Of a stretch of DNA of 64,000 nucleotides, positions 6,206 through 63,915 are shown one piece after another (the first letter of the stretch is position 1; the number at the start of each line of letters is the position of its first letter). Location of the stretch: positions 73,272 to 137,271 of the forward strand of contig CAZECE010000042.1 of assembly GCA_964510525.1 (NCBI GenBank). Direction: 5' to 3'. The position numbers and the translations under genes are program-made. The notes beneath the pieces are model-generated. The model saw nothing but the letters and a program-made list of their open reading frames with translations. It was not told where the DNA came from and ran no database searches. This DNA comes from an uncultured Pseudomonadales bacterium (lineage in GTDB: Bacteria > Pseudomonadota > Gammaproteobacteria > Pseudomonadales > JANQJO01).

Positions 6206-6282
6206 TGGTAGCTACGGGTGGACTTGAACCACCGACCCCAGCATTATGAATGCTGTGCTCTAACCAGCTGAGCTACGTAGCC
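6206..6282 (-). tRNA. tRNA-Met (anticodon CAU, elongator type)
   Basis: The reverse complement GGCTACGTAGCTCAGCTGGTTAGAGCACAGCATTCATAATGCTGGGGTCGGTGGTTCAAGTCCACCCGTAGCTACCA folds as a cloverleaf and is near-identical in its arms to E. coli metT. Confidence 0.95.
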
Positions 6283-11900: not shown

Positions 11901-12060
11901 GCGCGTTTACGATTGCGGTTAAGATGACTTGTGTTTGATCATCGTAGATTTTAAAAATGGTGTTCTGGATGATGATCTTATGGCCAACGTCAATCAGAGC
12001 GTTTAAAAAGATCACGGTTAGAAAGGCGATGGCGCCATGCGTTTTGAGTAGTTTATTCAT
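8821..12060 (-). CDS. aas: fused LplT-like MFS transporter / lysophospholipid acyltransferase / acyl-ACP synthetase (Aas); adenylation domain ends at the hinge
   Basis: The first ~410 aa are polytopic membrane protein. Then comes HX4D acyltransferase 'FLGNHISWIDW ... FPEGKISRTG', then an AMP-binding domain 'FSSGTTDLPKA', 'EGYGTTETT', 'TEDIGYLDEDGFLTILGR'. The C-terminal subdomain (A8-A10) is absent. Confidence 0.85.
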   Translation of the reverse strand: MNKLLKTHGAIAFLTVIFLNALIDVGHKIIIQNTIFKIYDDQTQVILTAIVNALILLPFVLLMSPAGFISDQSPKNHVMRFTGWVAFGTALCITYCYYQGWFWAAFSLTLVLAIQSAFYGPAKLSYLAPLFGKDNLAQANGLAQSASITAILAATGLFSWFFESRFDANWAQESDVIRGIAPVGWFLIFNSVIELALIYRLPTLESPPKKTRFDWKAYKRGQLMRDKLHIFSQHQTIRLSIIGLSVFWSVGQVMLAAFPAHAKSQFGITNTMAIQGAMAASGIGIAIGAVLAGRWSRSHIETGLIPLGALGVTLGLFWLPNAIDTATQAFTFFLIGVAGSLFIVPLNALIQFNASDSERGSIIALTNWIQTLAMLAFLTLTVVLALLNINTLWLLYFIAIVACVGCLYTVYRIPQSLIRFVFTALLTQHYRVNTQGVEHIPEKGPVLFLGNHISWIDWAILQIACPRPIRFVMIKSIYDRWYLNGFLRLMGCIPIEQGPNSQKAIDDITALLENGEAVCLFPEGKISRTGHLAEFRHGYLRATEKVSAPVQIVPFYLRGLWGSQFSRASTHTQSLNQAGITRDLVVTFGQPVPKDTPPDRLKQQVFDLSIDAWEQYAHSLDTLPAAWLKTAKGALSKTATLEATHSETNHTTKISNRAMLAQSLWLSRQIRSTVKDSLLGFVLPTSSTQMTANMAALFAGKTITNLNYTYGFKAFKHTIQSTQLKNLCTTQAFFNTLLEQGYPLDQLDVQWVILDHFQTKFTPQTQRWMKIAVTLTPSAVLNVLFNRAKHANDCATLVFSSGTTDLPKAIRLSHRNIMANAKQASDVLNLQEQDITMAALPSFHAYAMTVNQFMPLLCGLPIVCHPDPMDGEGLAKRVTQNNTTLLCSTPAMLDKLAREERIHPLMLQPLRLVISGGHKLTDNTRQAFEQKFNKPIMEGYGTTETTPIASVNLPDALDTRTWKVQLGGKKGTVGMPLPGTSFKIIDPITQAEKNTGEAGVILIGGTQIMLGYVNPPQTQNSTQTQPTVMLDGRQWFITEDIGYLDEDGFLTILGRDPQALSEPPTPPHNTPVDETTSGE

Positions 12061-16118: not shown

Positions 16119-16218
16119 AGAACCAGTTCACTGAGCGTTTGTTTATTTAGTGGGTACAAACTTTATTTTAGAAGAGCTCGTCAGTAATAGGGCAGAATCA
16201 AGTGATTTATTTTAAGCA

Positions 16219-16301
16219 GGTGCCTATAACGTTGGTTCTATAAAGCGGATGCTATAACTTTGATCCTATAGTTTTATTTTGATTCTATAGTTTTGATTCT
16301 A
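16219..16301. repeat. degenerate ~14-bp repeat array (CTATA core) between the M48 gene and the kinase gene
   Basis: CTATA occurs at 16224, 16238, 16252, 16266 and 16285, giving spacings of 14, 14, 14 and 19. The last copy contains the M48 stop codon, and a related 'gattcta' lies inside the CDS end. Confidence 0.7.
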
Positions 16302-29136: not shown

Positions 29137-29211
29137 TGGCTGGGCCGGTAGGATTCGAACCTACGCATGGCGGGATCAAAACCCGCTGCCTTACCACTTG
29201 GCTACGGCCCA
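29137..29211 (-). tRNA. tRNA-Gln (anticodon UUG)
   Basis: The reverse complement TGGGCCGTAGCCAAGTGGTAAGGCAGCGGGTTTTGATCCCGCCATGCGTAGGTTCGAATCCTACCGGCCCAGCCA folds as a cloverleaf with anticodon loop TTTTGAT. Confidence 0.93.
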
Positions 29212-32327: not shown

Positions 32328-32359
32328 GAGTTTGTGTAGTTAAGAATTTGTGTAGTTAA
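32328..32359. repeat. 16-bp tandem duplication spanning the dnaX stop codon
   Basis: gagtttgtgtagttaa (32328-32343) and gaatttgtgtagttaa (32344-32359). A third degenerate copy lies just upstream at ~32312. Confidence 0.8.
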
Positions 32360-34095
32360 ATCGGGGTGATCGAGTTTGGCTTGATCATGGCTCCCATTTT
32401 TGTTTTTAGATCCTGAATGGTTGGATCGCCTTCAATGGCTGCGGTGGCTGATTCTAAGTCTTTTTTGGCGGTGTTTTCCAGGTTTTGTTGTGGTGATATG
32501 GTATCTGATTGGCCTATTTGGATGCTCACTTTCAGATGGGGGTTTAGATGTTGTTGCAGAGCTTGAGTGAGTTGTTGTTCGCTGTTCGATGTTTTTAAGG
32601 CTTCACGATCTGGGGTGAGATTAAGGCAGAGTGTGTTGTCTTGAAAGCTCAGTAAGCTGCAGTTTTTGGCCAGATTGAGTGTGCTTTTGGAGAGTTGTAA
32701 TTGATCGGTGGTGGTGTCCCAGTTTAACTCAGCGGGTGTTTTGGCTTTATTAAGGGTGTTGGATTTACTATTAAGGGTGTTGGGTTCACTGGGTGCGTTG
32801 GCATTTAGTGGGGTTTGTTTGTGAGCTGGTAGCTCATTGAGTGGTTCGTTTTGTATGGGGGGCTGTGCCGGGGCTGGTGTGGGTGATTGTATGGATTGTG
32901 GTTTGGGTGTTGGCTGTGGTGCGTTAGAGGGCGATTGCGGTATAGCTGGAGTTTCAGTGGGGGGTTCATGAGCAGGGCTGCTTGTAGCAAGGTGTTCAGC
33001 CAGGTAACCGTCCATTGTCAGCAAACGCAGAACCAGCATTTCAAAGCCTTCACGAAGGTTCGGGTGCAGTGTCAGGTCTCGGTGGCCTAAAATTACCAGC
33101 TGGTAATACAGCTGAATGTCTTCTTTGGTGAATTGTTTGGCCCATTCGGCGATGTTTGGATTGTCTGTGGGAACAGCTTGGGTGTCGGGTGGCAACCACT
33201 GATGTAGGGCAATTGTGTGTAAGGCGCTGGCTAATGCTTTGGTGGTTTCAACAAAGTCGGCACCCAGTTGCGCCAGTTTTTCGATGGCTTGGAAGGCTTG
33301 GCTTGGCGACTGGGCCAGTAAAGCATTGATCAGGCCTGAGACCTTGTCTTGGCTGACAGTCCCCAGCATGCTTTCAATGACGTCGAGTGTGATGTTGCCG
33401 TTGGTCAGTGCAATGGCTTGATCGGCCAGGCTTAAGGTGTCTCGGACGCTGCCGTTACCGGCATTGGCAATTAATTGTAGGGCGTTGGTTTCAAAGGTGA
33501 TGTTTTCAGCGTTCAGCACCTTGCTGAGGTGTTCGGTCAGCATGTGAGCTGATACGGCTCTCAAGGTGAATTGCAAGCAGCGGGAGAGTACGGTGATAGG
33601 CAGTTTTTGTGGGTCTGTAGTCGCTAATAAGAACGTTAGGTGCGCAGGCGGTTCTTCTAGTGTTTTCAGCAAGGCATTAAAGCTATGCGTGGAGAGCATG
33701 TGTACTTCGTCAATGAGGTAAATTTTGATCTTGCCTTTGACGGGTGGGTATTGTGCGCTTTCTAAGAGTTCTTTGGTGTCTTCGACTTTGGTGCGTGAAG
33801 CGGCGTCGACTTCTATTAGATCTACGAAGTTGCCAGCGTTGATTTCTTGGCAGGTTTTGCATTGTTCGCAAGGGGTTGGGCTGGCGCCTTGCTCGCAGTT
33901 TAGGCACTTGGCAAGTATTCGCGCTAGGGTGGTCTTCCCGACGCCACGGGTTCCGGTAAATAAATAGGCTTGATGCAGTCGGTTTTGCTCGATGGCGTTG
34001 CTGAGTGCGGCAACCACGTGAGGTTGGCCGATAACGTCAGCGAAGGTTTTTGGGCGCCATTTTCGGGCTAAGACGTGATGCGACATTGAAGACAA
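32356..34095 (-). CDS. dnaX: DNA polymerase III subunit gamma/tau
   Basis: 'LARKWRPKTFADVIGQ', 'GTRGVGKTT', a zinc module, and a Pro/Gln-rich linker. Confidence 0.95.
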   Translation of the reverse strand: MSSMSHHVLARKWRPKTFADVIGQPHVVAALSNAIEQNRLHQAYLFTGTRGVGKTTLARILAKCLNCEQGASPTPCEQCKTCQEINAGNFVDLIEVDAASRTKVEDTKELLESAQYPPVKGKIKIYLIDEVHMLSTHSFNALLKTLEEPPAHLTFLLATTDPQKLPITVLSRCLQFTLRAVSAHMLTEHLSKVLNAENITFETNALQLIANAGNGSVRDTLSLADQAIALTNGNITLDVIESMLGTVSQDKVSGLINALLAQSPSQAFQAIEKLAQLGADFVETTKALASALHTIALHQWLPPDTQAVPTDNPNIAEWAKQFTKEDIQLYYQLVILGHRDLTLHPNLREGFEMLVLRLLTMDGYLAEHLATSSPAHEPPTETPAIPQSPSNAPQPTPKPQSIQSPTPAPAQPPIQNEPLNELPAHKQTPLNANAPSEPNTLNSKSNTLNKAKTPAELNWDTTTDQLQLSKSTLNLAKNCSLLSFQDNTLCLNLTPDREALKTSNSEQQLTQALQQHLNPHLKVSIQIGQSDTISPQQNLENTAKKDLESATAAIEGDPTIQDLKTKMGAMIKPNSITPI

Positions 34096-34105
34096 TCAGA
34101 TAACT

Positions 34106-34217
34106 GGTGGCGGCTTCACCAGCTTAACCCTGCACACGCTTAATCTGTTACCGTTGCTCCCTTCCGGGCCTGGCGGGGTTGGCAGGCAAGCGTTGCAGTG
34201 GGACCAATGAAACCACC
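34106..34217 (-). ncRNA. ffs: signal recognition particle 4.5S RNA
   Basis: The minus strand contains CCAGGCCCGGAAGGGAGCAACGGTAACAG (compare E. coli CCAGGUCCGGAAGGAAGCAGCCAAGGCAG). The ends GGTGG... / ...GCCGCCACC can pair. It lies directly upstream of dnaX. Ends are approximate. Confidence 0.85.
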
Positions 34218-47977: not shown

Positions 47978-49237
47978 TTAAGGCAGTAACCGCAAAAAGC
48001 GATCTACTGAAATTACCCAGGCTGTTTCGTCGTATTTTTTAAATATGCCGCCATGCTGAATGACTTGTAGGATGGGTACCTTGAGTGATTTAGAAAATCG
48101 CAGTGTTGAAGACGAAATGGTTTTATTTGATAATTTTGCTTCAACCAAAAGAGTAGGTTGGTCATTAAGTGTGATTAAAAAATCCACCTCTTTTTGGTCA
48201 AAGTCTCGTACATAGAAAACTTTTGCTTTTCCCCACCCTTGTTCGGTCCATATGTGGCATGCTCGATATAGTTGTAAAGCCAAAAAATTTTCGAAAATGA
48301 TTGCATCGGTTTTGCAGTAAGCCCAATCCATAAAATACACTTTTTCTTCTTTTTTCACAGTGCGAGCAAGGTTTTTGCTCCAGGGTTTGATGGAGAATAT
48401 CAGCCACAGTTTTTTCAGCTGGTTTAGGTAATTTTTAATTGAGGGGTGCGAGGTTTCAACATCACGTGCTAATGAGGCAATAGATAAAGGGCTGCCTATG
48501 CGCTCAGGCAGTAGTTGCATCATACGCTCAACGGAATCGATGTTTTTGATGTTAGTGAGGTCACGTAAATCTTCGTGCAGCAATAGAGAGATATAATCTT
48601 GATGCCATTTAAAAGAAAAGCGTTGTGAGGCTCTAAAGAGGGGTTCTGGAAAGCCTCCGAATGTTAATAACTGTGCGATATGCTCGGTGTATTCATTGTT
48701 ATCAGCTGTGTTTTTTAGTCGTTCAAATAGCTGTGTTGCCGGTTGTTGCCAATCTGCTTTGCTGCACAACCATATGTCGGAAAGTGGGGTTGATGCCAAC
48801 TCAGAAGCTGAGAAGGGGAAAAGGCTAAAATGAGTGTAGCGTCCTACTAAAGAATCTCCCGATTGCCGAAAGAGATTTAAGCGGGCGCTACCCGTTACGA
48901 AAATACGGTGTCGATGTTCAATAGAATCAAAAGCCCCTTTTAGAATATCTTTCCATTGTTGCCGTTTGTGGATTTCATCAAAAACGATTAAAGAGGGTTG
49001 AGCAGGGTTGATATCCTGCATAAAAAAGAAGGGGTTTTCATTGTAAGCGCGCCTGATGCTTGGGTTATCCCAATTATAGTAATGACCTTGATAGGCCTGG
49101 GATAACATATGTTTAGAAAAGGTGGTCTTACCAATTTGCCGCGGGCCTGATAAAAATACCATTTTATTGGTGATTAGTTCAGGATCGTCAATATATGATT
49201 CAATTTGACGCTGTTCCGTTAGTCCATTGTTTTTCAT
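47978..49237 (-). CDS. AAA+ ATPase with C-terminal PD-(D/E)xK-like domain (COG1373 / AAA_14 + DUF4143 type)
   Basis: Walker A 'GPRQIGKTT', Walker B 'LIVFDEIHK', and C-terminal 'DFDQKEVDFLIT...LLVEAKLS' (D...E-x-K nuclease-like motif). The gene is visibly AT-rich. Confidence 0.75.
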   Translation of the reverse strand: MKNNGLTEQRQIESYIDDPELITNKMVFLSGPRQIGKTTFSKHMLSQAYQGHYYNWDNPSIRRAYNENPFFFMQDINPAQPSLIVFDEIHKRQQWKDILKGAFDSIEHRHRIFVTGSARLNLFRQSGDSLVGRYTHFSLFPFSASELASTPLSDIWLCSKADWQQPATQLFERLKNTADNNEYTEHIAQLLTFGGFPEPLFRASQRFSFKWHQDYISLLLHEDLRDLTNIKNIDSVERMMQLLPERIGSPLSIASLARDVETSHPSIKNYLNQLKKLWLIFSIKPWSKNLARTVKKEEKVYFMDWAYCKTDAIIFENFLALQLYRACHIWTEQGWGKAKVFYVRDFDQKEVDFLITLNDQPTLLVEAKLSNKTISSSTLRFSKSLKVPILQVIQHGGIFKKYDETAWVISVDRFLRLLP

Positions 49238-49969: not shown

Positions 49970-50046
49970 TGGCGGGCCTGGCAGGACTCGAACCTGCAAC
50001 CCTCGGCTTCGAAGGCCGATGCTCTATCCAGTTGAGCTACAGACCC
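49970..50046 (-). tRNA. tRNA-Arg (anticodon UCG)
   Basis: The reverse complement GGGTCTGTAGCTCAACTGGATAGAGCATCGGCCTTCGAAGCCGAGGGTTGCAGGTTCGAGTCCTGCCAGGCCCGCCA folds as a cloverleaf with anticodon loop CTTCGAA. Confidence 0.9.
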
Positions 50047-51086: not shown

Positions 51087-51093
51087 GCGCCTC

Positions 51094-51471
51094 GAGTTGG
51101 CTAAGCAGTCGCTTCAGGTGGTTGTGTTTTCTTCGGAGAATGCTTCGGGCCTGGAGAGGAAAGTCCGGGCTCCATAGGGCAAGGTGCCAGGTAACGCCTG
51201 GAAAGCGCGAGCTTATGGAAAGTGCCGCAGAAAATATACCGCCCATGCTTATTTATATAAGTGTGTGGTAAGGGTGAAATGGTGCGGTAAGAGCGCACCG
51301 CGCATCTGGCAACAGATGTGGCAGGGTAAACCCCACCGGGAGCAAGGCCGAATAGGATCCCTTTGACACGGCCCGTGTTGGGATCGGGTAGGCTGCTTGA
51401 GGCATGGTGCGAATCATGTCCCAGATGAATGACTGTTCACGACAGAACCCGGCTTATCGGCCAACTCATCA
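51094..51471 (+). ncRNA. rnpB: RNase P RNA, bacterial type A
   Basis: GAGGAAAGTCCGGGCTCCATAGGGCAAGGTGCCAGGTAACGCCTGG and ...GGTAAGAGCGCACCG...ACAGAACCCGGCTTATCGGCCAACTC match universally conserved rnpB blocks. The 5' GAGTTGGC pairs with the 3' GCCAACTC. Confidence 0.93.
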
Positions 51472-51561
51472 TTTCTGATTTTTGATCTGTAGTCCTAAGT
51501 CTGTGTTTTTATTGAGGTGTATTCACACCAGTTTTTTCTGTTTACTGTAAATTTGTCTGGA

Positions 51562-52196: not shown

Positions 52197-53174
52197 ATGG
52201 ATAAGCCTGAACATATAAGCGTTTTATGGCAGGAATCGTTAGAGGCGTTAGCTATTCAACCTGATGGCTTTTATCTGGACGGGACCTTTGGTCGCGGTGG
52301 ACACAGCCGAGGGGTTTTAAAGCGATTGGGGCCGGGCGGGTTGCTGTTAGCGGTGGATCAGGATCCTCAGGCTGAGCAGGAAGCGACAAAATTACAGCGG
52401 GAATTGATGAGTTTAGGCGATGATTGTGCTGAATTTCAGTTTTTAAGAGGGCGCTTTAGTGAAGTTGAAAAAGCGGTAGCCCAATTGAATCGGCCATTGA
52501 TGGGGGTGTTGTTGGATTTGGGGGTGTCGTCCCCTCAGTTGGATGAAGCAGAGCGAGGGTTTAGCTTTCAGCAGTCAGGGCCTTTGGATATGCGAATGGA
52601 TCCACACAGAGGCGAGCCGTTGCAAGAAAAATTGTTGGCCGTGTCGGATGAAGACTTGGCCAACGTTTTGTGGACATTGGGGGAAGAGCGGCATTCACGG
52701 CGAATAGCAAAAGCGATTTTGTTGGCGCAAGCAGAAGGGCGGTTGAATACAACGGGGGAATTGGCTGAGGTGATCAAAGCGGCGCACCCGAAATGGCAGC
52801 CAGGCAAGCACCCTGCGACGAAAAGCTTTTTGGCCTTGCGGTTGTGGGTCAATCAAGAGTTAGACGAGTTGGAGAAGGCGCTTAGGCAATTTACGGAGTT
52901 GCTGGCTCCCGGAGGGCGCTTGGTGGTGATTAGCTTTCATTCTTTGGAGGATCGAATCGTAAAACGGTTTTTCAAAGGCCAACAAGAGTCGACGCCGGAT
53001 ATTCCGCCTTGGGTCCCAGTGGCTAGTGGTGGGGGCGATAAGAAAAACCAGCATCCCTTGCGGGTGCTGATAAAAGGGCAAAAGCCTTCGGCAGAAGAGC
53101 AGAATAGAAATTCAAGAGCGCGTAGCGCTATTTTGCGGGTGGCAGAGAAAATTGAGAGTGGCAGAGAAAATTGA
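52197..53174 (+). CDS. rsmH: 16S rRNA (cytosine1402-N4)-methyltransferase
   Basis: 'HISVLWQESLEAL', 'DGTFGRGGHS' and 'DLGVSSPQLD'. Confidence 0.96.
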   Translation: MDKPEHISVLWQESLEALAIQPDGFYLDGTFGRGGHSRGVLKRLGPGGLLLAVDQDPQAEQEATKLQRELMSLGDDCAEFQFLRGRFSEVEKAVAQLNRPLMGVLLDLGVSSPQLDEAERGFSFQQSGPLDMRMDPHRGEPLQEKLLAVSDEDLANVLWTLGEERHSRRIAKAILLAQAEGRLNTTGELAEVIKAAHPKWQPGKHPATKSFLALRLWVNQELDELEKALRQFTELLAPGGRLVVISFHSLEDRIVKRFFKGQQESTPDIPPWVPVASGGGDKKNQHPLRVLIKGQKPSAEEQNRNSRARSAILRVAEKIESGREN

Positions 53175-53518
53175 GTAAACCACAGCGCAGTCGAACCTCG
53201 AGACGCCAAAAGGCTCAGCAAAATGCTTTGGGGTTGCCTGTTGGTACCGAAAAAGGATGCTGGTTAATGGCGCTGTGTTTGGGAGCAGTGGTGGCTTCGG
53301 CGATGAGCGTTGTGGTGCTGAAACACGTTTATCGCCAGCAAGTTCAGTATTTGTATCACCTCACTGAAACGCGTGAGGCTTTGCAAGCAGAATGGAATCA
53401 ATTACAAGCCGAATATTCTTCTTTATCGGCTTTGGATCAGGTTGAGTATATTGCCAAAAATGAGTTGGGTATGCGGTTGCCCAGTCCACAGGATATTGGG
53501 GTATTGGCTGTCCCCTAA
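53171..53518 (+). CDS. ftsL: cell division protein FtsL
   Basis: Small bitopic protein with a coiled-coil region 'LQAEWNQLQAEYSSL', in the conserved position. TTG start overlapping the rsmH stop. Confidence 0.85.
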   Translation: MSKPQRSRTSRRQKAQQNALGLPVGTEKGCWLMALCLGAVVASAMSVVVLKHVYRQQVQYLYHLTETREALQAEWNQLQAEYSSLSALDQVEYIAKNELGMRLPSPQDIGVLAVP

Positions 53519-53545
53519 GCTTAAAGATTAAAGGATTAACCCGTT

Positions 53546-55279
53546 ATGACGCGACATTCCCGATCAAAAGTAAGCAGCAAGAAAACGTCTGTAGCCTACC
53601 CTTGGCGGTTTAGGGTGTTGTTGCTTGGGTTTACCTTGTGCTTGGGGGCTATTGGAGGGTATACCTTCCAATTGAATTGGGGACAGGGCGATTTTTTGCG
53701 TCAGCAGGGATCCATGAGAGCTACAGGAGGGTTAACCATTCCGGCTTATCGTGGCACCGTAGTGGATCGTAATGGTGTGCCTTTGGCGGTGAGTACCGAG
53801 GTGGTGAGCATTGGTGTTAACCCTCAGGTGTTAAGTCAGCGTCCTGAGCATTGGCTTACTTTTGCAACGGCTTTTGAGGTTAGCTTGGATGATGTTGCGG
53901 ATTGGTTGAATAAATATTCGGGGCGCCAGTTTGTGTATTGGCGTCGTCACCTGGACCCGCAGGTTGCAAACGCTATTTTGGCGCTGAAAATTCCCGGTGT
54001 ATCAGGAAGAACGGAGTATAAACGCTATTACCCCGCCGGTGAGGTGACGTCACATCTGTTAGGGTTTACGAATATTGATGATCAAGGTCAAGAAGGAATA
54101 GAGCTTTCCTACAACGCAGTGTTGGCAGGGGAGCAGGGGCGTGCTTCTTCGTCTCGTGATCGCCGTGGGCGAGTGGTGGATATGTGGGAAGTCGATGAGG
54201 CCGCCAAAGAAGGCCAAGATTTGGCCTTAACCATCGATTTGCGTATGCAATACTTGGCTCATAGAGCATTAGCGAAAGCCGTCGATCAGCATAATGCAAA
54301 AGGTGGATCTTTGGTGGCTTTAGATGTCGCCACTGGTGAGGTGTTAGCCATGACCAACCAGCCCGCGTTCAACCCAAATAACCGAATTGATTTGGATTAT
54401 GATTCTGTTCGCAATAGAGCGGTGACGGATGTTTTTGAACCGGGGTCTACAGTGAAACCTTTTACGGTGGCAGCTGCCCTGACCTCTGGTACTCATGAAG
54501 CCTATACGCCGATCCAAACGGCTCCAGGTACGATGCAAGTGGGTCGTAAAACCATTCGTGATATCAGTAATTATGGCTTGATTGATGTGCAAACGGTGTT
54601 GACTAAATCAAGCAATGTGGGGGTTGCGAAAATCGCGTTATCCATGGCGCCAAATTATCTCACGGGGTTTTATGATCGTTTAGGGTTGGGGCACGCCACT
54701 GATTTGTTGTTATCTGGTGAGCGAACCGGTTATATGCCAATGAAGAATCGCTGGAGTGATTTGGAAGTGGCGACCTTATCATTTGGTTATGGAATGTCGG
54801 TGACCGCCTTGCAGTTAGCACAAGCCTACTCTGTGGTGGCGGATAATGGTGTTAAGCGTTCTTTATCTGTGGTTTCTCAGACTGGAATTCCTGCTCAACG
54901 CCAACAAGTAATGGATCCAGAGGTCGCTTCCACGGTCAGCGATATATTGGAAACGGTCACGGGTCGAGAAGGGACAGCCAAGCGGGCTCAAGTGCCAGGT
55001 TATCGCGTAGCAGGTAAAACTGGCACCGTACATAAAGTTGTTAAAACGGGTTATGCGGAAGATCAGTATTTATCGCTGTTTGCAGGCTTTGCTCCGGCAA
55101 CAGATCCTAAAATTGTGATCGTGGTCGTGGTAGATGAGCCGAATGCGGGTCAACATTATGGGGGGCAGGTGGCGGCTCCTGTTTTTTCCGAAGCCATGGG
55201 TGGGATGTTGCGATTAGCGGGCGTTCAAATGGATGATATGAGCATAAAAGACCAATACTATGCTCAAGCTAAGTTGTAA
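53546..55279 (+). CDS. ftsI: peptidoglycan D,D-transpeptidase FtsI (PBP3)
   Basis: 'RGTVVDRNG' with transpeptidase motifs 'STVKPF', 'SSN' and 'KTGT'. Confidence 0.95.
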   Translation: MTRHSRSKVSSKKTSVAYPWRFRVLLLGFTLCLGAIGGYTFQLNWGQGDFLRQQGSMRATGGLTIPAYRGTVVDRNGVPLAVSTEVVSIGVNPQVLSQRPEHWLTFATAFEVSLDDVADWLNKYSGRQFVYWRRHLDPQVANAILALKIPGVSGRTEYKRYYPAGEVTSHLLGFTNIDDQGQEGIELSYNAVLAGEQGRASSSRDRRGRVVDMWEVDEAAKEGQDLALTIDLRMQYLAHRALAKAVDQHNAKGGSLVALDVATGEVLAMTNQPAFNPNNRIDLDYDSVRNRAVTDVFEPGSTVKPFTVAAALTSGTHEAYTPIQTAPGTMQVGRKTIRDISNYGLIDVQTVLTKSSNVGVAKIALSMAPNYLTGFYDRLGLGHATDLLLSGERTGYMPMKNRWSDLEVATLSFGYGMSVTALQLAQAYSVVADNGVKRSLSVVSQTGIPAQRQQVMDPEVASTVSDILETVTGREGTAKRAQVPGYRVAGKTGTVHKVVKTGYAEDQYLSLFAGFAPATDPKIVIVVVVDEPNAGQHYGGQVAAPVFSEAMGGMLRLAGVQMDDMSIKDQYYAQAKL

Positions 55280-55324
55280 CCCAAAGGCAGTGGTTGTTCC
55301 GTGTAATGGTTAAGTTGAGTTGTC

Positions 55325-56935
55325 ATGGCGTCAGGTTTGCCCGTCTGGGAATTACAGGTATTACTTGAACCTTGGTTGGAAATCAGCTCTGAGGCGAACC
55401 TTGTCGTTTCGTCGTTGTGTACTGACAGTCGTATTTGTCAGTCCGGTGCGCTCTTTGTTTGTCTATTTGAATCGATAGATAGTACGGTTGAGTCCTACAT
55501 TCGGCAGGCCGTCGAGAAAGGCGCGGTGGCTGTTCTCAGTGTTGTGTCGATTCCGCACAGTGTGCTGAGTGATGATTCTGTTGTGGGTTATGTTTGGTCT
55601 GAGCTCAAGGAGCGCTGGCCAGAGTTTGTAGCGCGTTATTTTGATTACCCGGGAGCCGGCATTCAGTTAGCGGCTTTTACCGGCACTAACGGCAAAACCA
55701 CCTGTGCTTGGTGGTTGGCGCAGGTAATAGAGCATTTAGGGGCTCCATGCGGTGTGCTAGGTACCTTGGGGTCTGGCCGGGTGATGTCTTTGCAGTCTAC
55801 AGGGTATACGACGCCGGACTTGTTGCAGTTACAAAGCACTTTGTTTCATTGGCGTGAACAAGGGGTTCGTTTTGGCAGTCTTGAAGCATCGTCTCATGGC
55901 ATTGATCAGGGGCGTTTGGATGGGGTGCCATTGGATGTTGCGGTACTGACGAATTTGAGTCGTGATCACCTGGATTATCATGGCAGCATGGAGGTATACG
56001 AGTCTGTTAAAGCTCGCTTGTTTGAATGGCCAGGTTTAAAGCACGCTGTGTTGAATTTGGATGAGCCAATGTCTTTAAGAGTGATAGCGCGTTTGCAAGC
56101 TCAACAACAACCGTTTTCTACCTATCGTTTAGATCATGGCGGTGTTGAGAGTGATGGTGTTGAGAGTGATGGTGTGGAAAGTGACGATGTTGAAAGAGTG
56201 GTGGATATAGCATCACAAGCACATCAAGCTGTTGTTGTGAGAGTGCAAGATCAGCAGACTGAAGGTTCTTCCGTTGTGGTTAAGTTATCCCAGGGAGATC
56301 ATACCGAAACGGTTATGGCTCAATGGCCTTTTTTTGGCGCTTACAATATTCAAAATGCATCTGCTGTGCTGGTTGCTGCAATGACGCTAGGATTTTCGTT
56401 TCAGAAGGTGGTGGCGGCTTTAACTCACGTGGCTTTACCACCAGGTAGAATGCAGAGTATTTCTAATCCGCTTAATGCGAAAATCTTAGTCGATTACGCG
56501 CACACACCTGATGCGTTACAAAAAGCGTTGATGGCTTGCCGAGAAGTGTGTTCTAAACGGTTGGTGGTTTTGTTTGGGTGTGGTGGGGATCGAGATAAAG
56601 GTAAGCGGCAGGCGATGGGCGCTGTTGCTGGAGAACTCGCGGATCATATTATTTTAACCAACGACAATCCTCGGTCTGAATCTCCGCAACAGATTATAGA
56701 GCAGATCTTAATGGGTGTGCCTGGTGCTGAAGGTCGGGTTGAGAGTATTTCGGATCGTCGGGAAGCTATTGCTGTTGGGGTTAAGCAATTGCAATCCGGT
56801 GATGTGTTGTTAGTGGCCGGTAAAGGCCATGAATCTTACCAATTAGTTGGAACAGAACGTATTGAATTTGATGATGTGAAAGAAATAACAGCCGTGGTTG
56901 CATCATTAGGTCAAAATGAAAAGCAGATTAATTAG
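55325..56935 (+). CDS. murE: UDP-N-acetylmuramoyl-L-alanyl-D-glutamate--2,6-diaminopimelate ligase
   Basis: 'FTGTNGKTT', 'TNLSRDHLDYHG' and 'NDNPRSE'. It contains a tandem-repeat insertion. Confidence 0.94.
   Translation: MASGLPVWELQVLLEPWLEISSEANLVVSSLCTDSRICQSGALFVCLFESIDSTVESYIRQAVEKGAVAVLSVVSIPHSVLSDDSVVGYVWSELKERWPEFVARYFDYPGAGIQLAAFTGTNGKTTCAWWLAQVIEHLGAPCGVLGTLGSGRVMSLQSTGYTTPDLLQLQSTLFHWREQGVRFGSLEASSHGIDQGRLDGVPLDVAVLTNLSRDHLDYHGSMEVYESVKARLFEWPGLKHAVLNLDEPMSLRVIARLQAQQQPFSTYRLDHGGVESDGVESDGVESDDVERVVDIASQAHQAVVVRVQDQQTEGSSVVVKLSQGDHTETVMAQWPFFGAYNIQNASAVLVAAMTLGFSFQKVVAALTHVALPPGRMQSISNPLNAKILVDYAHTPDALQKALMACREVCSKRLVVLFGCGGDRDKGKRQAMGAVAGELADHIILTNDNPRSESPQQIIEQILMGVPGAEGRVESISDRREAIAVGVKQLQSGDVLLVAGKGHESYQLVGTERIEFDDVKEITAVVASLGQNEKQIN
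56142..56201. repeat. 15-bp in-frame tandem repeat inside murE (GVESD x3-4)
   Basis: ggtgttgagagtgat x2 (perfect), then ggtgtggaaagtgac, then gatgttgaaagagtg. Confidence 0.9.
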
Positions 56936-56940
56936 GAGTC

Positions 56941-58455
56941 TTGATCTTAATGTCAGTGATAACATTGAAATGTTCAGAAGTCATTCAAGCGTTAGATGCA
57001 CAGGTTTTGTCGGCTGGAGAAAGCTCAAGCCTTGTGTTTAAGTCCGTGAGTACTGACACACGTCATATTGATCGCGATGCATTATTTGTCGCATTACAGG
57101 GCCCTAATTTTAATGGTGAGGACTTCGTTGCGGCAGCACTGAATGCTGGAGCTGTGGGAGTGGTTGTTTCGCCACGCTTTGATCTGGCCAGTTTGGATAA
57201 AGTTGCAGGGTTCGATAAAACCTGGCTGAATTCTGCCATCATATTGGCGGTACCTGATACCTTGGTGGCTTTGGGGCAATTGGGGCGTTTGTGGCAACAA
57301 CAGCTTTCTTTAAACCATGCTTTGAAAAAAGTAGCGATCACAGGCAGTTGTGGCAAAACGACAGTAAAGGAATTGATCTCTCAGGTTTTGCAAGCAGAAT
57401 TTGAAACACTCTCGACAGAAAAAAATTATAATAATGAAGTGGGTGTGCCATTAACCTTGTTGCGATGTCAGCCGCATCACCAACGTGCGGTATTGGAGTT
57501 GGGAGCTGGTAAACCTGGAGACATCGCGTATTCAGGGCAGTGGGTGCAGCCGGATGTTGTGGTGATTACTAATGCGGGGGCTGCGCACTTAGAGGGTATG
57601 GGGTCTTTGGCCGGCGTTGCAAAAACTAAGGGAGAGTTACTGGATGTGGTGTCTGATCAAGGTGTCGCTGTTCTTAATGCCGATGACGACTTCTATACTG
57701 AGTGGCGGGAGCGTGCCAAGCGGGTAACCATTTTAAGTTGCTCTTTGCATGAGGAAAGCAAAGCCGATCTCATCGCGACCGATATTAAGCAGACCGAAGA
57801 TCTGCAAACTTTAATACGCGTTTCTTTGACGGGTACTGCGGCAGCCTACCTTAAAGATAAAGGAGGCGATGCTGATACTTTAGAGTTGCTGACTTCTTTG
57901 CAAGGTGGGCATAATGTTTTAAATATATTGCAGACAGTGGCTGCAAGTATGGTGTTAGGTGCCTCTGTTGAGGCTATAAAAAAAGGGGTAAAAGGAATGA
58001 CGGCAGTGGCAGGACGCTTAAAATCAAAAGAAGGGTGGCAGTCAAATATTACACTGTTGGATGATACTTATAATGCCAATCCAAATTCAGTAAAAGCCGC
58101 TATTGATGTGTTAGCTGAATTACCAGGGCAGCGTTTTCTCGTCATGGGGGATATGGCAGAGCTCGGTGATTACAGCTTGGAAGCGCACCAAGAAGTGGGG
58201 GCTTTTGCGCGACAGCAAGGCATTGATCAGCTGATCGCTATTGGTCGGTATGCGTCTGCCACATTAGCTGGCTTTGGTGCCGGAGGGATTGAAGTGTCTG
58301 ATTTTGATCAGGCCGCTGACCGCTTGAAGGGTTTAACAGAAGACGAAGATGTGCCACAAACCATTTTGTTTAAAGGTTCGCGCAGTGCTGGGGTTGATCA
58401 ACTGGTGGGGCGGCTAACAAACGAGTTAGCGGCTGCAGACCCGGGTCAACACTGA
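56941..58455 (+). CDS. murF: UDP-N-acetylmuramoyl-tripeptide--D-alanyl-D-alanine ligase
   Basis: '[12 protein letters not shown]', '[10 protein letters not shown]' and 'DDTYNANP'. The start may be ATG 56950. Confidence 0.94.
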
Positions 58456-59537
58456 TGCTGTATTGGCTGGCTGAATACCTAGCGCAATTTTCTTCGTTTT
58501 TTAATGTATTTCATTATTTAACATTCCGAGGCATTTTGGGTGCGTTGACGGCCCTAGTGATTTCATTGCTGTTAGGGCCAAGGTATATCCGTTATATGGT
58601 CTCAAAGCAGATTGGTCAGTCAGTTCGTCAGGATGGGCCACAGACGCACTTATCCAAAGCGGGTACCCCCACCATGGGGGGCGGTCTGATTTTGCTAGCC
58701 GTTTCGATCAGTATTTTGTTGTGGGCTAATTTAAGCAATCATTACATTTGGACGACGTTTTTTGTATTGATTGGCTTTGGTGCCATTGGCTGGGTGGATG
58801 ATTACCGTAAGGTGATTCAAAAAAACAGTCGTGGTCTGCCTGGCCGATGGAAGTACTTTTGGCAATCGGTGATCGGTATTTTAGTCGCTGTGTTTCTGTA
58901 CCAGAAGGCAGTAGATCCCAGTATGCTCTCTTTAATCGTACCGTTCTTTAAAGAGGTGTTTATACCGTTGGGTATCTTTTTTATTCCACTCACTTACTTT
59001 GTGATTGTTGGTTCCAGTAATGCGGTCAATCTGACGGATGGTTTGGATGGTTTGGCCATTATGCCCGTGGTGTTGATTGCGGGTGGCTTAGGGGTGTTTG
59101 CTTATTTGTCTGGGCATGTTGGGTTTGCCGAGTATTTGCACATTCCTTATATTGCGGGCAGTGGTGAGCTGATCGTTATTTGCAGTGCGCTTATTGGCGC
59201 GGGGTTGGGGTTCTTGTGGTTTAATACCTATCCGGCTCAAGTGTTTATGGGTGATATTGGGTCTTTGTCTTTAGGCGCCTGTTTAGGGGTTATGGCGGTT
59301 ATTGTTCGCCAAGAACTGGCTTTTTTTGTGATGAGTGGTGTTTTTGTGATGGAAACCCTCTCGGTTATTTTGCAAGTGGCTTCGTTTAAGTTAACCGGAA
59401 AACGTATTTTTAAGATGGCTCCTATTCATCACCATTTTGAGTTAAAAGGTTGGCCTGAGCCTAAGGTGATCGTTCGGTTTTGGATTATAACGGTTATTTT
59501 GGTGTTGTTAGGTTTGGCTACTTTAAAACTTAGGTAA
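58455..59537 (+). CDS. mraY: phospho-N-acetylmuramoyl-pentapeptide transferase
   Basis: 'MLYWLAEYL...[10 protein letters not shown]' and '[13 protein letters not shown]'. TGATG overlap with murF. Confidence 0.97.
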
Positions 59538-59580
59538 AATCTAGAAATTTTAGGCTTAACTGTTTTCAAGGTTTAATTAG

Positions 59581-60993
59581 ATGATAGAGCTGCCCCTCCC
59601 ATATCAGCATGTGTTGGTTGTTGGGCTGGGTGAAACCGGTTGGTCCGCCGTCAAATTTTTAATCTCTCATCAAGCTCGGGTTACCGTACTAGACACTCGC
59701 CAATCGCCTCCTTTTTTAGAATCGGCTCGAGCATTAGCTGAATCATCCGATGTGACGATCGTGTTAGAAGCATTATCGGATACTTGGGAAACCGAGCGCT
59801 GGACGTCGATTGATGCCATCGTGTTAAGCCCCGGCATTGATCCTCGACAGCCTTTTTTTGTTGCGGCTGCTGCTCAAGGGGTTCCTATTATTGGTGATGT
59901 TGAGTTGGCGCTGCAATTGGTGCAACCCAAAGTGATTGCGATTACGGGCAGTAATGGGAAAAGTACCGTGACTGATTGGGTTGCTTATGTACTTGATCAA
60001 ATAGGGTATCCAGTTGTTGCGTGCGGTAACTTAGGGGTGCCACTGTTGAGTTTGATCGTGCGAGATTGCGACCCTAAGATTTTAGAGAAAGTCTGGGTGA
60101 TTGAGTTATCGAGTTTTCAGCTTGAAAGCTTAAAATCTCTGCAAGCGGAAGTCGCGGTCTGTTTAAACGTTGAAGCCGATCACTTGGATCGATATCGAGA
60201 TATTGATGAATACGCTCGTGTTAAGCATCGTATTTATGACGGCGCTCATCAGGCGGTGATCAATCGAGATTTGCCCAAAAACTTGCGAACGGACATCTCT
60301 CAGCCTGAGCAGAATACGTGGTCTTTCGGTGAAAAGAGCGATAGTGAAGGCATTCATGATTTTTATTTGGCAGAACAAGAGGGGCATGTTTGTCTGATGT
60401 TATCAGGAAAACCTCTTCTTGCGGTTTCAGAGCTGGGTATTTACGGTCGACACAATCAGTTAAATGCATTAGCTGTTCTGGCCATATTGGATGCCTACGG
60501 GGTTGATTTAACGGCTGCAATAGCACCATTAAAAAACTATCGTGGTTTACAGCACCGCTGTCAGTGGGTCGGGTGTTATGATGGCGTGCATTGGTTTAAT
60601 GATTCTAAAGCGACTAATGTGGGCGCAGTCATTGCTGCGATAGAAGGGCTTTGTGATGCGAGCACCGGTCAGCTGATCTTGTTATTGGGTGGCGTCGCTA
60701 AAGAAAACGGTGGGTATGAGGCCTTGGTTGATCCCATCTTAAACTATGTGAGTACAGTGGTGTTGTTTGGCCAAGATAAAGCTTTTTTAAATCAACTCTT
60801 TCAGCCGGTAGCTGATGACCGTTTAGCAATAGTTGAGGCCGATGGGTTGCTGGATGCGGTGCAACAGGCTCGTGAATTAGCAAAGCCTGAAGATGCTGTA
60901 GTGTTATCGCCGGCCTGTGCCAGTTTTGATGAATTTAAAAACTACCAAGAACGTGGTGATCAGTTCATGCAGTGGGTGAAAGAGGGGATTTGA
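59581..60993 (+). CDS. murD: UDP-N-acetylmuramoylalanine--D-glutamate ligase
   Basis: 'VVGLGETGWS', 'ITGSNGKSTV' and 'NDSKATNV'. Confidence 0.95.
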   Translation: MIELPLPYQHVLVVGLGETGWSAVKFLISHQARVTVLDTRQSPPFLESARALAESSDVTIVLEALSDTWETERWTSIDAIVLSPGIDPRQPFFVAAAAQGVPIIGDVELALQLVQPKVIAITGSNGKSTVTDWVAYVLDQIGYPVVACGNLGVPLLSLIVRDCDPKILEKVWVIELSSFQLESLKSLQAEVAVCLNVEADHLDRYRDIDEYARVKHRIYDGAHQAVINRDLPKNLRTDISQPEQNTWSFGEKSDSEGIHDFYLAEQEGHVCLMLSGKPLLAVSELGIYGRHNQLNALAVLAILDAYGVDLTAAIAPLKNYRGLQHRCQWVGCYDGVHWFNDSKATNVGAVIAAIEGLCDASTGQLILLLGGVAKENGGYEALVDPILNYVSTVVLFGQDKAFLNQLFQPVADDRLAIVEADGLLDAVQQARELAKPEDAVVLSPACASFDEFKNYQERGDQFMQWVKEGI

Positions 60994-60995
60994 TC

Positions 60996-62162
60996 ATGAG
61001 TATGCCATCGTTAAATCTCTGGCCTCAAATGAGAAGCCTGTATTGCGAGCAAATTTTGCTGTTTCTAATCGTATCTTTGTTGCTATTTGGTTGGGTTGCT
61101 GTGACGTCGGCCTCGATGGAAGTGGCGTTGAATTACAATTTTGAAGCCTTGCATTATTTCAAGCGCCATTTAGCTTTTATGGTGGTAGGGGTGTTGGGTG
61201 CCTTGTTGATGTTGCGTATTCCTCTTGCTTTTTGGGAGTTGAGAGGCTGGATTTTGTTGCCTGTGACCTTGTTTTTACTGCTGCTGGTGTTGATTCCAGG
61301 TGTTGGCTATGAGGTGAATGGTGCCCAGCGTTGGATTCGATTAGGTCCTGTTAATTTTCAAATCAGTGAGTTGGCAAAGATAACCTACTTAATCTACTTG
61401 GCGGGGTATTTGGTGCGACACCAAGCCTCGGTTCAGCAGTCATGGTCGGGTTTTATGAAACCCTTGATTTTGTTGTTTGGTATTGTGGTGTTGATTTTGG
61501 CGCAACCCGACTTTGGGGGTGTGTTGGTGTTGGTGGCCGCCACGATGGGGGTGATTTTTTTATCCGGTGTTCGGCTAAGCCAATTGATTTTGGTGGGCGC
61601 CGTGGTGTTGTTTTTGGGTAGTTTATTGATAGTGTTTGAGCCCTATCGATGGCAGCGTATTTTGGCGTTTCGGGATCCCTGGGCGGATCCTTACAATGGC
61701 AGTTACCAGCTAACCCAAAGTTTGATTGCGCTTGGGCGAGGGGATTGGTTTGGTATTGGGTTGGGGGGCAGTTTGCAAAAATTGTTGTATTTGCCGGAAG
61801 CTCATACGGATTTTATTTTTGCCGTTATTTGTGAAGAGCTGGGGGTCATTGGGGGTATTTTCTTAGGGTGTGTATTTGCGACCTTGGTGGCAATGTTATT
61901 TCGAGTGGGGCGGACTGCAGAAACTCTGGGTAAGTTTTTCGGGGCTTACTTGAGCTATGGCGTGGGTATGCTGATTGGCATGCAGTTTTTAATTAATATT
62001 GGTGTTAACACCGGACTGCTGCCCACCAAAGGGCTGACGTTACCGCTGATCAGCTACGGTGGGTCGAGTTTGGTATTTACGATGATCGCCTTAGGGTTAG
62101 TGTACCGTGTGCAGATCGAAAACCGCCAGACCCTGGGCTGGCCAAAGAAAAAAGGTTTTTGA
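60996..62162 (+). CDS. ftsW: peptidoglycan glycosyltransferase / lipid II flippase FtsW
   Basis: SEDS family: 'GAQRWIRLGPVNFQISELAK', 'PEAHTDFIFA' and 'TKGLTLPLISYGGSS'. The start is placed at ATG 60996, 3 nt after the murD stop; the track ORF begins at 60972. Confidence 0.94.
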   Translation: MSMPSLNLWPQMRSLYCEQILLFLIVSLLLFGWVAVTSASMEVALNYNFEALHYFKRHLAFMVVGVLGALLMLRIPLAFWELRGWILLPVTLFLLLLVLIPGVGYEVNGAQRWIRLGPVNFQISELAKITYLIYLAGYLVRHQASVQQSWSGFMKPLILLFGIVVLILAQPDFGGVLVLVAATMGVIFLSGVRLSQLILVGAVVLFLGSLLIVFEPYRWQRILAFRDPWADPYNGSYQLTQSLIALGRGDWFGIGLGGSLQKLLYLPEAHTDFIFAVICEELGVIGGIFLGCVFATLVAMLFRVGRTAETLGKFFGAYLSYGVGMLIGMQFLINIGVNTGLLPTKGLTLPLISYGGSSLVFTMIALGLVYRVQIENRQTLGWPKKKGF

Positions 62163-62178
62163 TCGAGCTTATTTTCTT

Positions 62179-63915
62179 TTATCCCAGCCGTTCATCCACC
62201 GCATTCAAAAAACCAAACATATCAACAATGCTCTCATTGTCTGGTTGCTTAGTTTTGCCTTTTAAGTCACCGGTGATGATGCCTTCATCGACGGTTGCAA
62301 TCAGGGCAGCTTTGAGTTTATGAGAATACTCGATCAGTTCTTGGTTGTCTTCTCGCTGGCCTAAAATTTCAAGCGCATTGGCAACCGCGTAGAGCAGGGC
62401 GGAAGAGTTAAACAGTGCTTCTTTGCCATCGGTTTCTAAATACTTCAAGTACAGATCGTGTGCGGTACCGTGAGGGGCTTCGTAGAGCATGGTGCCGTCT
62501 TTGCTTTCAATGATTGAGCTGGCTGTAGCCAAGCTGCCGCCTAGGGCTGCAGAAATATCGGAGAAGATATCGCCATCTAAATTAAGAGCGGGATAGATAG
62601 CATTACGGGGTGGGTCGGAGATCATTTTTTTCAGTTGGCTCGAGGGGCGCATGATCATGAAGGAAGGCGGCTGAATGTCATCATCGACAAGCTCTTCGCG
62701 AACTTCATTGATCACTGTACTAAACACGTCATCGTATTCCATGTATTCACGCTTTAAGCCGAAATAGATTTCTTTTTCGTTGTTGGCGGCATCCCGAAAC
62801 ACTTGCTTGACCCAGTCTTTAATGGCATTGCGATCGTTGGCCATAAAAATGATGGGGTCATTGGCCTTGATCTCTCGAGCGTGTTTTTCTTCCCCATCAA
62901 GAGAGATCTTAATCAATCCATCTTCTTTCGCGGCCATGTTAAAACTGCCGTATTGATCGCCGCCGCCGGCGCTCATGCGGGAGATGGATTGAGTAAATTG
63001 TCGTTCGGGGATACCGTGTTTTTTCAGCGTTTCGACGAGCTTGTAGAGCTTTCTGCCTGAGGTGTTTTCAGGAACGCCCCAAATGGCACGCTCTGGTGGG
63101 TTGGCGATGATTCTTGCTGCTTGAGCATCGATCAGTTCGTAGTGGTAGGCCAAGCCAGCTGCTTTGAGTTTGTCTTTGTACTCACTTTCATAAATGGCTT
63201 CGATGGTGTGTCGCATTGCGCCGTCGTAGCCTGGAATTACGGTGTCTTTTAATCCTAAGTAAACATCTCTTTTTTCATCGAGAGCGCGTTGAAAAAATTG
63301 GTGGGCCCAAGCTTTGACGTCTTCTGAGCTGTTAGTTGCGATGAGCCAAGGGTCGCCTTTATTAATTTTACGACGGTGCAATTCAACGGGTTCGCCGCTG
63401 CTGCCTACAAAGAGAACTTTAATGATGCCAGAGACCCTTGATAATTCGTTATGACTGTCTTTGTTGCCACCATGTGCCATTGTGTCAACCACAATGTCTC
63501 GGTTGATCCAGTCAGGGGTTAAACGTTTTAAGTTATTAAAAGGAATGTCTTCGCGGGTGATGTTGCCCCCAATGCCTTTGCGTATGGCACCGTTGGGTGA
63601 TTTTGTGGCTAGGGGGTCAAGGTTGTTTTTTTGGATACTGGGGTTTTCAGTCAGTAGCTCGTTTAGCTGGGTTTTGTTGACCGTCATGCCAGCATTTTTA
63701 ATGCCGACGCCGTAAGTTTTCAGTTCTTCAATTGCGTCTCGGACCACCTGGCCATTGGTTAATAGCCGGTGTTCAGCTGATAAGTCAATTTCAATGAGTT
63801 CAATTTCAAGTTTGTTTTTAACAAATTGCTCTATCACGCGCTCAAAGGCGATTTGTGCCATCTCATCGCCATGGAGTAAGACTAATGGCTTTTTGACTTT
63901 GATTTTTGAGCTCAT
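62179..63915 (-). CDS. isocitrate dehydrogenase-like protein (eukaryote-type/type II fold) with an internal ~165-aa duplication
   Basis: 'LHGDEMAQI', 'KSPNGAIRKGIGGNITRE', 'LNLDGDIFSD' and 'YEAPHGTA' parallel the IDH1/IDH2-type enzymes. At 578 aa it is about 165 aa longer than that type. Confidence 0.75.
   Translation of the reverse strand: MSSKIKVKKPLVLLHGDEMAQIAFERVIEQFVKNKLEIELIEIDLSAEHRLLTNGQVVRDAIEELKTYGVGIKNAGMTVNKTQLNELLTENPSIQKNNLDPLATKSPNGAIRKGIGGNITREDIPFNNLKRLTPDWINRDIVVDTMAHGGNKDSHNELSRVSGIIKVLFVGSSGEPVELHRRKINKGDPWLIATNSSEDVKAWAHQFFQRALDEKRDVYLGLKDTVIPGYDGAMRHTIEAIYESEYKDKLKAAGLAYHYELIDAQAARIIANPPERAIWGVPENTSGRKLYKLVETLKKHGIPERQFTQSISRMSAGGGDQYGSFNMAAKEDGLIKISLDGEEKHAREIKANDPIIFMANDRNAIKDWVKQVFRDAANNEKEIYFGLKREYMEYDDVFSTVINEVREELVDDDIQPPSFMIMRPSSQLKKMISDPPRNAIYPALNLDGDIFSDISAALGGSLATASSIIESKDGTMLYEAPHGTAHDLYLKYLETDGKEALFNSSALLYAVANALEILGQREDNQELIEYSHKLKAALIATVDEGIITGDLKGKTKQPDNESIVDMFGFLNAVDERLG

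Follow-up and report, generated by a model that had tools for sequence, protein, structure and literature searches.

We report that an isocitrate dehydrogenase (IDH) gene in metagenomic DNA from an uncultured Pseudomonadales bacterium encodes a single chain in which the small and clasp domains occur twice in tandem, with the catalytic residues of the enzyme divided between the two copies. The gene (62179..63915, minus strand; 578 amino acids, stop codon included in the interval) lies in a stretch of 64,000 nucleotides (nt) (GenBank assembly GCA_964510525.1, contig CAZECE010000042.1, positions 73,272 to 137,271), which we call the window and whose coordinates we use throughout. Judged by its homologues, by published primers and by described residues, the protein is an orthologue of ClIDH, the IDH of Congregibacter litoralis KT71, and presumably an IDH dependent on nicotinamide adenine dinucleotide (NAD+). 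We consider it probable that the whole explanation developed below is correct, namely that the protein is such an orthologue, that its duplicated copies complement each other to form one active site per chain, and that the enzyme is a hexamer of such chains. It appears to be unreported that the segment described as an insertion in ClIDH is a duplication as in the monomeric IDHs, and that this family, together with relatives of 594–702 amino acids, connects IDH types II and III. The pseudo-dimer principle itself is already known from monomeric IDHs.

The gene was assigned from its open reading frame (ORF), a match to the Pfam family Iso_dh (PF00180, E = 3.7e-22, 79.5 bits against a cut-off of 27, which it passes) and matches to type II IDHs in the PDB. 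In a phmmer search of PDB sequences, the best relatives were type II IDHs that use the phosphorylated cofactor NADP+ (NADP-IDHs), headed by the yeast enzyme (2qfv, E = 3e-52). This alignment breaks in two, with residues 3–271 placed on yeast residues 17–276 and residues 443–577 on 285–419, and roughly 170 residues (272–442) are left over. The NCBIfam NADP-IDH equivalogs NF006156 and TIGR00127 also give strong two-piece matches, which score below their cut-offs (256 versus 335 and 204 versus 397, respectively), a shortfall for which the splitting of the alignment by these residues and the NAD type of the enzyme would account. The Pfam family PF03971, ‘Monomeric isocitrate dehydrogenase’, matches marginally and partially (26.8 bits against a cut-off of 25), residues 281–542 falling on positions 373–637 of its 734. 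One further PDB entry, 6lkz chain C (495 amino acids, ‘isocitrate dehydrogenase’), covers only the N-terminal 250 or so residues of the query (E = 1e-21).

We mapped the protein onto human IDH1, whose sequence was validated against well-known residue numbers and PDB alignment fragments. The N-terminal part of the large, cofactor-binding domain (residues 1–115; 63571..63915, minus strand, as are all the segments that follow) carries T78, S106, N108 and R112, which correspond to T77, S94, N96 and R100 of IDH1 and are all invariant in a conservation set of 83 sequences, made up of the query and 82 sequences taken from genome loci. It is followed by a single-copy segment of the small domain (residues 116–140; 63496..63570) with R121, which corresponds to R109 of IDH1; the segment lies outside the duplication, the repeat alignment beginning at residues 141/309. 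Copy 1 (residues 141–280; 63076..63495) and copy 2 (residues 309–442; 62590..62991), each comprising small and clasp domains and each delimited by BLASTP, hhalign and the IDH1 mapping, flank a linker helix (residues 281–308, VPENTSGRKLYKLVETLKKHGIPERQFT; 62992..63075), which was assigned from a predicted helix at 284–300 and a profile alignment. The C-terminal part of the large domain (residues 443–578; 62182..62589), delimited by the yeast alignment above, contains the metal ligands in the motif DGDIFSD (residues 447–453, nt 62557–62577) and the NAD+ specificity pair D487/L488 (nt 62452–62457). The interval that had drawn attention in an earlier, sequence-only reading of the window, 62557–63501, corresponds exactly to residues 139–453.

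The small and clasp domains are duplicated in tandem, which accounts for the extra residues, about 165 in number. BLASTP of residues 101–300 against residues 271–470 paired 143–279 with 311–441 (26% identity over 139 columns, 54 bits, E = 5e-14), and hhalign, run on the two segments of a 36-sequence family alignment, returned a probability of 98.5% (E = 2.8e-15, 129 columns, 29% identity). The duplicated unit corresponds to about residues 128–268 of IDH1, and the repeat period is 162–170 residues. Copy 2 together with the C terminus, taken alone, aligns colinearly to residues ~135–311 of type II IDH, so either copy can occupy the same position in the IDH fold. Both the pairwise and the profile alignment of the two halves thus recover the internal duplication that the sequence-only reading had proposed, rather than unrelated insertions, and the motifs that it quoted are all present as stated. 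A one-genome-per-species scan returned 247 relatives, the best 80 of them 71–80% identical to the window protein; with these relatives, and with the 80 loci that were kept matching near full length, we reject a chance match or an assembly artefact as the source of the repeat.

The active site of dimeric IDH combines Arg132, Tyr139, Asp275 and Asp279 of one subunit with Lys212′ and Asp252′ of the other. In copy 1, the equivalents of Lys212 and Asp252 are kept (K223, codon 63247–63249; D263, codon 63127–63129), Arg132 and Tyr139 are replaced by T145 and K152, and the DGD..D motif is lost. In copy 2, Arg132 and Tyr139 are kept as R313 (codon 62977–62979, placed by the HMMER alignment across a two-residue indel) and Y322 (codon 62950–62952), Lys212 corresponds to K388, and Asp252 corresponds to S425, with no Asp; this copy leads into D449 and D453, the equivalents of Asp275 and Asp279. 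Two further arginines, R112 and R121, sit in N-terminal sequence that is present once. K223, D263, R313, Y322, D449 and D453 are invariant in 83 of 83 sequences, as is an equivalent of every isocitrate- and metal-binding residue of IDH1, and the degenerate copy 1 position 152 varies among K, D, L and R. The two copies equal the large domain in conservation, mean identity being 72% in copy 1, 75% in copy 2 and 70–77% in the large domain. K388, the Lys of copy 2, is invariant in the close family and gives way to Asp or a variable motif in distant relatives of the same architecture, which speaks against its being the catalytic Lys. The complementary split of catalytic residues suggested by the sequence-only reading is therefore borne out by the IDH1 mapping and by the invariance of the residues, which are not gathered in one copy: K223 and D263 belong to copy 1, R313 and Y322 to copy 2.

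An AlphaFold2 (AF2) model built from the family alignment (mean predicted local distance difference test score (pLDDT) 80; predicted template modelling score (pTM) 0.77) shows the same order of strands and helices in both copies, with the helix at 284–300 between them. In a Foldseek search of the PDB with this model, the best whole-chain matches were monomeric IDHs: 5kvu (Mycobacterium tuberculosis ICD2), 1itw and 1j1w (Azotobacter vinelandii), 7y1u (Campylobacter corcagiensis) and 4zda (Mycobacterium smegmatis), with query-normalised template modelling (TM) scores of 0.68–0.73. Dimeric type II chains, despite their higher sequence identity, cover only part of the model (TM 0.42). The predicted monomer, the structural check that the sequence-only reading had proposed, thus matches the fold of monomeric IDHs over the whole chain.

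The family to which the protein belongs has been described. Mapping IDH1 R314/H315 onto D487/L488 led to its identification with the enzyme of Wu et al. (2015, PLoS One, PMC4420465), ClIDH (EAQ96042), which has 580 residues and is strictly NAD+-specific by its kinetics, and whose D487R/L488H mutant prefers NADP+. ClIDH forms a homohexamer, sized at ~390 kDa by gel filtration and at ~350 kDa by ultracentrifugation, with an ‘additional 163 amino acids (Asn272-Met314 and Gly319-Trp438)’ set in the small domain; without residues 272–314 and 319–438 it is an inactive monomer of ~50 kDa, and its authors regard the segment as an insertion on which both hexamer formation and activity depend (PMC4420465). 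They list 38 marine homologues at 67–89% identity, for example from Luminiphilus, Halomonas and Marinobacter (PMC4420465). The published primers agree with the window protein: the mutagenic primer translates to HGTAH(RH)YLRYL, where the window protein has HGTAHDLYLKYL at 482–493, and the truncation primer, ARIV-S-SAGG-GLYPAQNL, corresponds to its AARIIA, SAGG and (A)IYPALNL, with junctions at 270, 315–318 and 440. The best 80 of the 247 relatives come from a similar range of organisms, including Halieaceae (Luminiphilus syltensis and Congregibacter among them), Halomonas, Motiliproteus, Ketobacter, Porticoccaceae and Arenicellales; identity to the window protein is 71% for the Luminiphilus syltensis NOR5-1B locus, 72% for an uncultured Congregibacter locus and 72–73% for the Halomonas loci. 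D487 and L488 are invariant in 83 of 83 sequences, and NAD+ specificity is predicted from this pair for the window protein, which the sequence-only reading had likened to NADP-type IDHs.

On the question of whether the architecture had been described, left unanswered by that reading, the literature thus gives a divided answer: the family is known, as a homohexamer and not a monomer, and the duplication is not named in the ClIDH paper, in which ‘duplicat’ and ‘repeat’ have 0 occurrences. Our searches of the open-access literature turned up no paper in which the segment is called a duplication, which leaves room for a report in a subscription journal, and we found the name ‘ClIDH’ in no other open-access paper. 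Later papers from the same group place ‘homohexameric NAD-IDHs’ under type II and state that the three subfamilies ‘evolved independently’. The UmIDH and PtIDH2 papers were considered as descriptions of the family and set aside, as they deal with other architectures.

The arrangement of the two copies is colinear with that of the monomeric (type III) IDHs. A profile of the central region, comprising the tail of copy 1, the linker and copy 2, gives one continuous alignment to 7y1u (residues 329–518, E = 3e-17) and likewise to 1itw (residues 347–527, E = 2e-16). It places D263 on Asp350 and Y322 on Tyr420 of the A. vinelandii enzyme (AvIDH), and a weaker second profile match places the K223 position on AvIDH Lys255. 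These three AvIDH residues are reported to be catalytic (Yasutake and colleagues, 2002). The linker, in which the metal-binding helix survives in degenerate form, falls on the PD..Y...IE..K.HG linker of monomeric IDHs, the central-region profile pairing VPENTSGRKLYKLVETLKKHG with IPDRCYAGVYQVVIEDCKQHG. The copies also find their own counterparts in monomeric IDHs: the profile of copy 1 hits their repeat 1 (7y1u 161–290, E = 3.9e-11; also 4zda, 2b0t and 1itw), and that of copy 2, with the linker, hits their repeat 2. The insert alone matches positions 373–522 of 734 in PF03971 (E = 3e-5), with no PF00180 match reported; in a control search, human IDH1 and three type II IDHs of ~400 residues gave no PF03971 match even at E ≤ 10. 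Profiles were needed for these comparisons, as a single-sequence phmmer search of the PDB with a fragment of P0165, one of the distant relatives introduced below, returned no matches. Type II characters are kept alongside, in R313 and in the DGD of N445-L-D-G-D449, where 7y1u has Leu and LRD, so that the character states are intermediate between those of type II and monomeric IDHs. Yasutake et al. (2002) present monomeric IDH as a case of protein monomerisation by domain duplication.

Among 1.84 billion cluster representatives, searched exhaustively, few full-length clusters lay close to the query (P0121 at 61% identity, P0123 at 45% and P0127 at 40%). Five further proteins of 594–702 amino acids (P0160, P0165, P0173, P0201 and P0268) share the two-repeat architecture and align end to end at 26–28% identity, and all keep K223, D263, R313, Y322, D449, D453 and D487 and match PF03971 in part. 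Their source names include ‘NADP-dependent isocitrate dehydrogenase [Alphaproteobacteria bacterium]’ and ‘monomeric isocitrate dehydrogenase’; one of these clusters includes MCQ2965752.1, from an alphaproteobacterial metagenome-assembled genome. The ClIDH-family profile finds type II IDHs at E = 2.6e-59 and monomeric IDHs (7y1u) at E = 1.1e-4, and a joint profile of the 594–702-residue proteins finds them at E ~5e-29 and ~8e-18, respectively. At the level of profile matches, similarity thus grades from type II through the ClIDH family and the 594–702-residue families to type III. We lean, by a modest degree, towards reading the ClIDH family and the 594–702-residue families as surviving intermediates between dimeric type II and monomeric type III IDHs; all of them would go back to a single ancient event in which an NAD-type, type II-like ancestor doubled its small and clasp domains. 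If so, they would contradict the published independent evolution of the three IDH subfamilies and would mark a stepwise path in sequence from the dimeric to the single-chain enzyme. The origin of monomeric IDHs, for which the current literature assumes independent origins, becomes testable by phylogeny and ancestral reconstruction.

The strongest competitor to this reading, which we regard as doubtful though the best placed of the alternatives, is that the duplication arose independently of that in monomeric IDHs and that the likeness is convergent. The far closer match of the ClIDH-only profile to type II enzymes than to 7y1u fits such a history, as do the greater length of monomeric IDHs (by about 160 residues), their different substrate Arg, in LRD instead of DGD, and the independence of the three subfamilies asserted in the literature. 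Convergence is, however, at odds with a profile alignment that runs continuously over the tail of copy 1, the linker helix and copy 2, with the pairing of copy 1 to repeat 1 and of copy 2 to repeat 2, with the two-sided matches of the 594–702-residue families, and with the lack of any PF03971 match in the ordinary type II IDHs of the control search.

Taken together, the split residues, the AF2 comparison and the profile alignments, that is, sequence and model, support well the pseudo-dimeric active site within one chain that the sequence-only reading had put forward. Once duplicated, the small and clasp domains would have degenerated in complementary ways in the two copies. The ‘own-subunit’ residues Arg313, Tyr322, Asp449 and Asp453 would come from copy 2, which is continuous with the C-terminal large domain, and Arg112 and Arg121 would be added by the N-terminal region that is present once. 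Copy 1 would supply Lys223 and Asp263, the residues given by the second subunit in dimeric IDH. The two copies would pack together inside one chain and mimic the dimer interface, giving one complete composite site per 64-kDa chain with a geometry like that of the monomeric (type III) design. By analogy with AbIDH2 and PtIDH2, such pseudo-dimeric chains may then assemble into the published hexamer. The same reading predicts that the published truncation is inactive, since R313 and Y322 are among the residues removed; that the truncated enzyme is a monomer agrees with a dimer-type interface for which the intact chain normally provides both sides.

Several points weigh against a site completed within one chain. 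ClIDH is hexameric, which would allow active sites formed between chains. The model has pLDDT values below 50 in the loops 225–228, 317–322 and 483–501, the first adjoining K223 and the second containing Y322, and the proximity of K223 and D263 to Y322 and D449 is suggested by homology and not by distances in the model. The ClIDH authors align the substrate-binding residues with those of type II enzymes and ascribe the inactivity of their truncation to loss of the oligomer (PMC4420465). A search of the open-access literature found no structure of a ClIDH-family member.

In one alternative, the copies complement each other between chains, in a domain-swapped hexamer where K223 and D263 of copy 1 complete a site that a neighbouring chain builds from its copy 2 and large domain. 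The oligomeric state of ClIDH and the low confidence of the model at the active-site loops would accommodate such an arrangement. We nevertheless consider it unlikely, because the single-chain AF2 model is compact and resembles monomeric IDHs (pTM 0.77, TM 0.71–0.73), and because monomeric IDHs, which are homologous, draw the counterparts of D263 and Y322 (D350 and Y420) from a single chain (Yasutake et al. 2002).

Less probable still is that the extra segment is, as Wu et al. (2015) propose, an insertion for hexamer assembly, with catalysis proceeding as in ordinary type II dimers and with residues outside the insert. Its deletion did turn a hexamer of ~350–390 kDa into an inactive monomer of ~50 kDa, and the authors report conservation of the substrate-binding residues between ClIDH and type II IDHs. 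Yet the segment shows homology to the 140 residues before it, and it holds the only equivalents of IDH1 Arg132 and Tyr139, the invariant R313 and Y322, the other copy having T145 and K152 at these positions. The published truncation would therefore be expected to be inactive whatever its oligomeric state, because it removes R313 and Y322 and leaves copy 1 with Thr and Lys. On the same grounds, we do not follow the sequence-only reading in its second suggestion, a neo-functionalised or regulatory insertion. That the protein is not an IDH at all but a neo-functionalised β-decarboxylating dehydrogenase with another substrate, as its varied database names (3-isopropylmalate dehydrogenase; isocitrate/isopropylmalate family dehydrogenase) and its scores under the NCBIfam IDH equivalog cut-offs might hint, is very improbable, since equivalents of all isocitrate- and metal-binding residues of IDH1 are invariant, ClIDH was assayed as an NAD+-dependent IDH and the sub-threshold scores are explained by the interrupted alignment.

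The 163-residue ‘insertion’ of ClIDH is here reinterpreted as a second small and clasp domain that carries the catalytic Arg and Tyr, and monomerisation by domain duplication gains a compact relative of 578 residues that is still type II-like in sequence.

The IDH gene stands alone on the opposite strand inside a division and cell-wall (dcw) cluster, between ftsW and murG (window 52197–63915). The gene and ftsW converge, the ORF of ftsW ending at 62162 and only 16 nt separating the two stop codons; murG and murC follow past the window edge in identical metagenomic contigs (locus L001, 1–12009). Upstream of the ATG lie a TATAAT-like box and a ribosome-binding site, AAAGGAAG. In Motiliproteus and Halioglobus the orthologue has unrelated neighbourhoods and no dcw placement; the position in the cluster is lineage-specific, and the gene neighbourhood offers no clue to function.

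Elsewhere in the window, GC content falls to 0.36–0.41 in 16001–20000, compared with ~0.46–0.50 in the remainder; this stretch, which may be horizontally acquired DNA, contains a 753-amino-acid ORF without a Pfam match (17207–19468, plus strand). A 1,079-amino-acid ORF (8821–12060, minus strand) fuses a major facilitator superfamily transporter, an acyltransferase and an AMP-binding domain, and presumably resembles a single-chain LplT-Aas protein for lysophospholipid transport and re-acylation. RNA genes include a class A RNase P RNA (51093–51472, plus strand, 331 bits), a small signal recognition particle RNA (34114–34209, minus strand) just downstream of dnaX (32356–34095), and three tRNA genes (6209–6282, 29140–29211 and 49973–50046, all minus strand). 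An ATPase ORF with AAA_14 and DUF4143 domains (47978–49237, minus strand) lies among housekeeping genes, near the last of these tRNA genes and the RNase P RNA.

Among known systems, ClIDH is the closest. It has 580 residues to the 578 of the window protein, its extra segment of ~163 residues begins at the same place (Asn272), it has the same cofactor pair with the same numbering (Asp487/Leu488) and the same HGTAHDLY motif, and its homologues span the same taxonomic range, that of marine Gammaproteobacteria with Halieaceae and Halomonas among them. The window protein differs in coming from another species, known from metagenomic contigs, and in how its segment is understood: a hexamer-assembly insertion in the ClIDH paper, here a domain duplication carrying the catalytic Arg313 and Tyr322. 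The type II dimers (human IDH1 and IDH2, yeast Idp1 and the enzymes of Desulfotalea and Clostridium thermocellum) are closest to the N-terminal 270 and the C-terminal 135 residues, and equivalents of all their substrate and metal ligands are present in the window protein. In contrast to the window protein with its two copies, however, they have one small and clasp domain per chain and form each site from two chains; each copy in the window protein keeps only half of the catalytic set, and the cofactor pair R314/H315 is replaced by D487/L488.

The monomeric IDHs of A. vinelandii (1itw/1j1w), Corynebacterium glutamicum (2b0t) and Campylobacter corcagiensis (7y1u), which belong to a type reported to share less than 10% identity with types I and II, resemble the window protein in having two tandem small-domain repeats per chain, the first with Lys and Asp and the second with Tyr, in the colinear order of repeat 1, linker helix and repeat 2, and in a similar predicted fold. 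The window protein is ~160 residues shorter (578 versus ~740; middle domain ~327 versus ~430), matches the 734 positions of PF03971 only in part, its N-terminal half matching type II, and has Gly beside the first metal Asp, where monomeric IDHs place the substrate Arg of LRD, keeping R313 instead; its family is hexameric. AbIDH2 of Acinetobacter baumannii, a dimer, and PtIDH2 of Phaeodactylum tricornutum, a tetramer, provide precedents for oligomers of pseudo-dimeric subunits like monomeric IDH; these are canonical type III enzymes of ~740 residues specific for NADP, whereas the ClIDH family has chains of ~580 residues and, as measured for ClIDH itself, is NAD-specific and hexameric.

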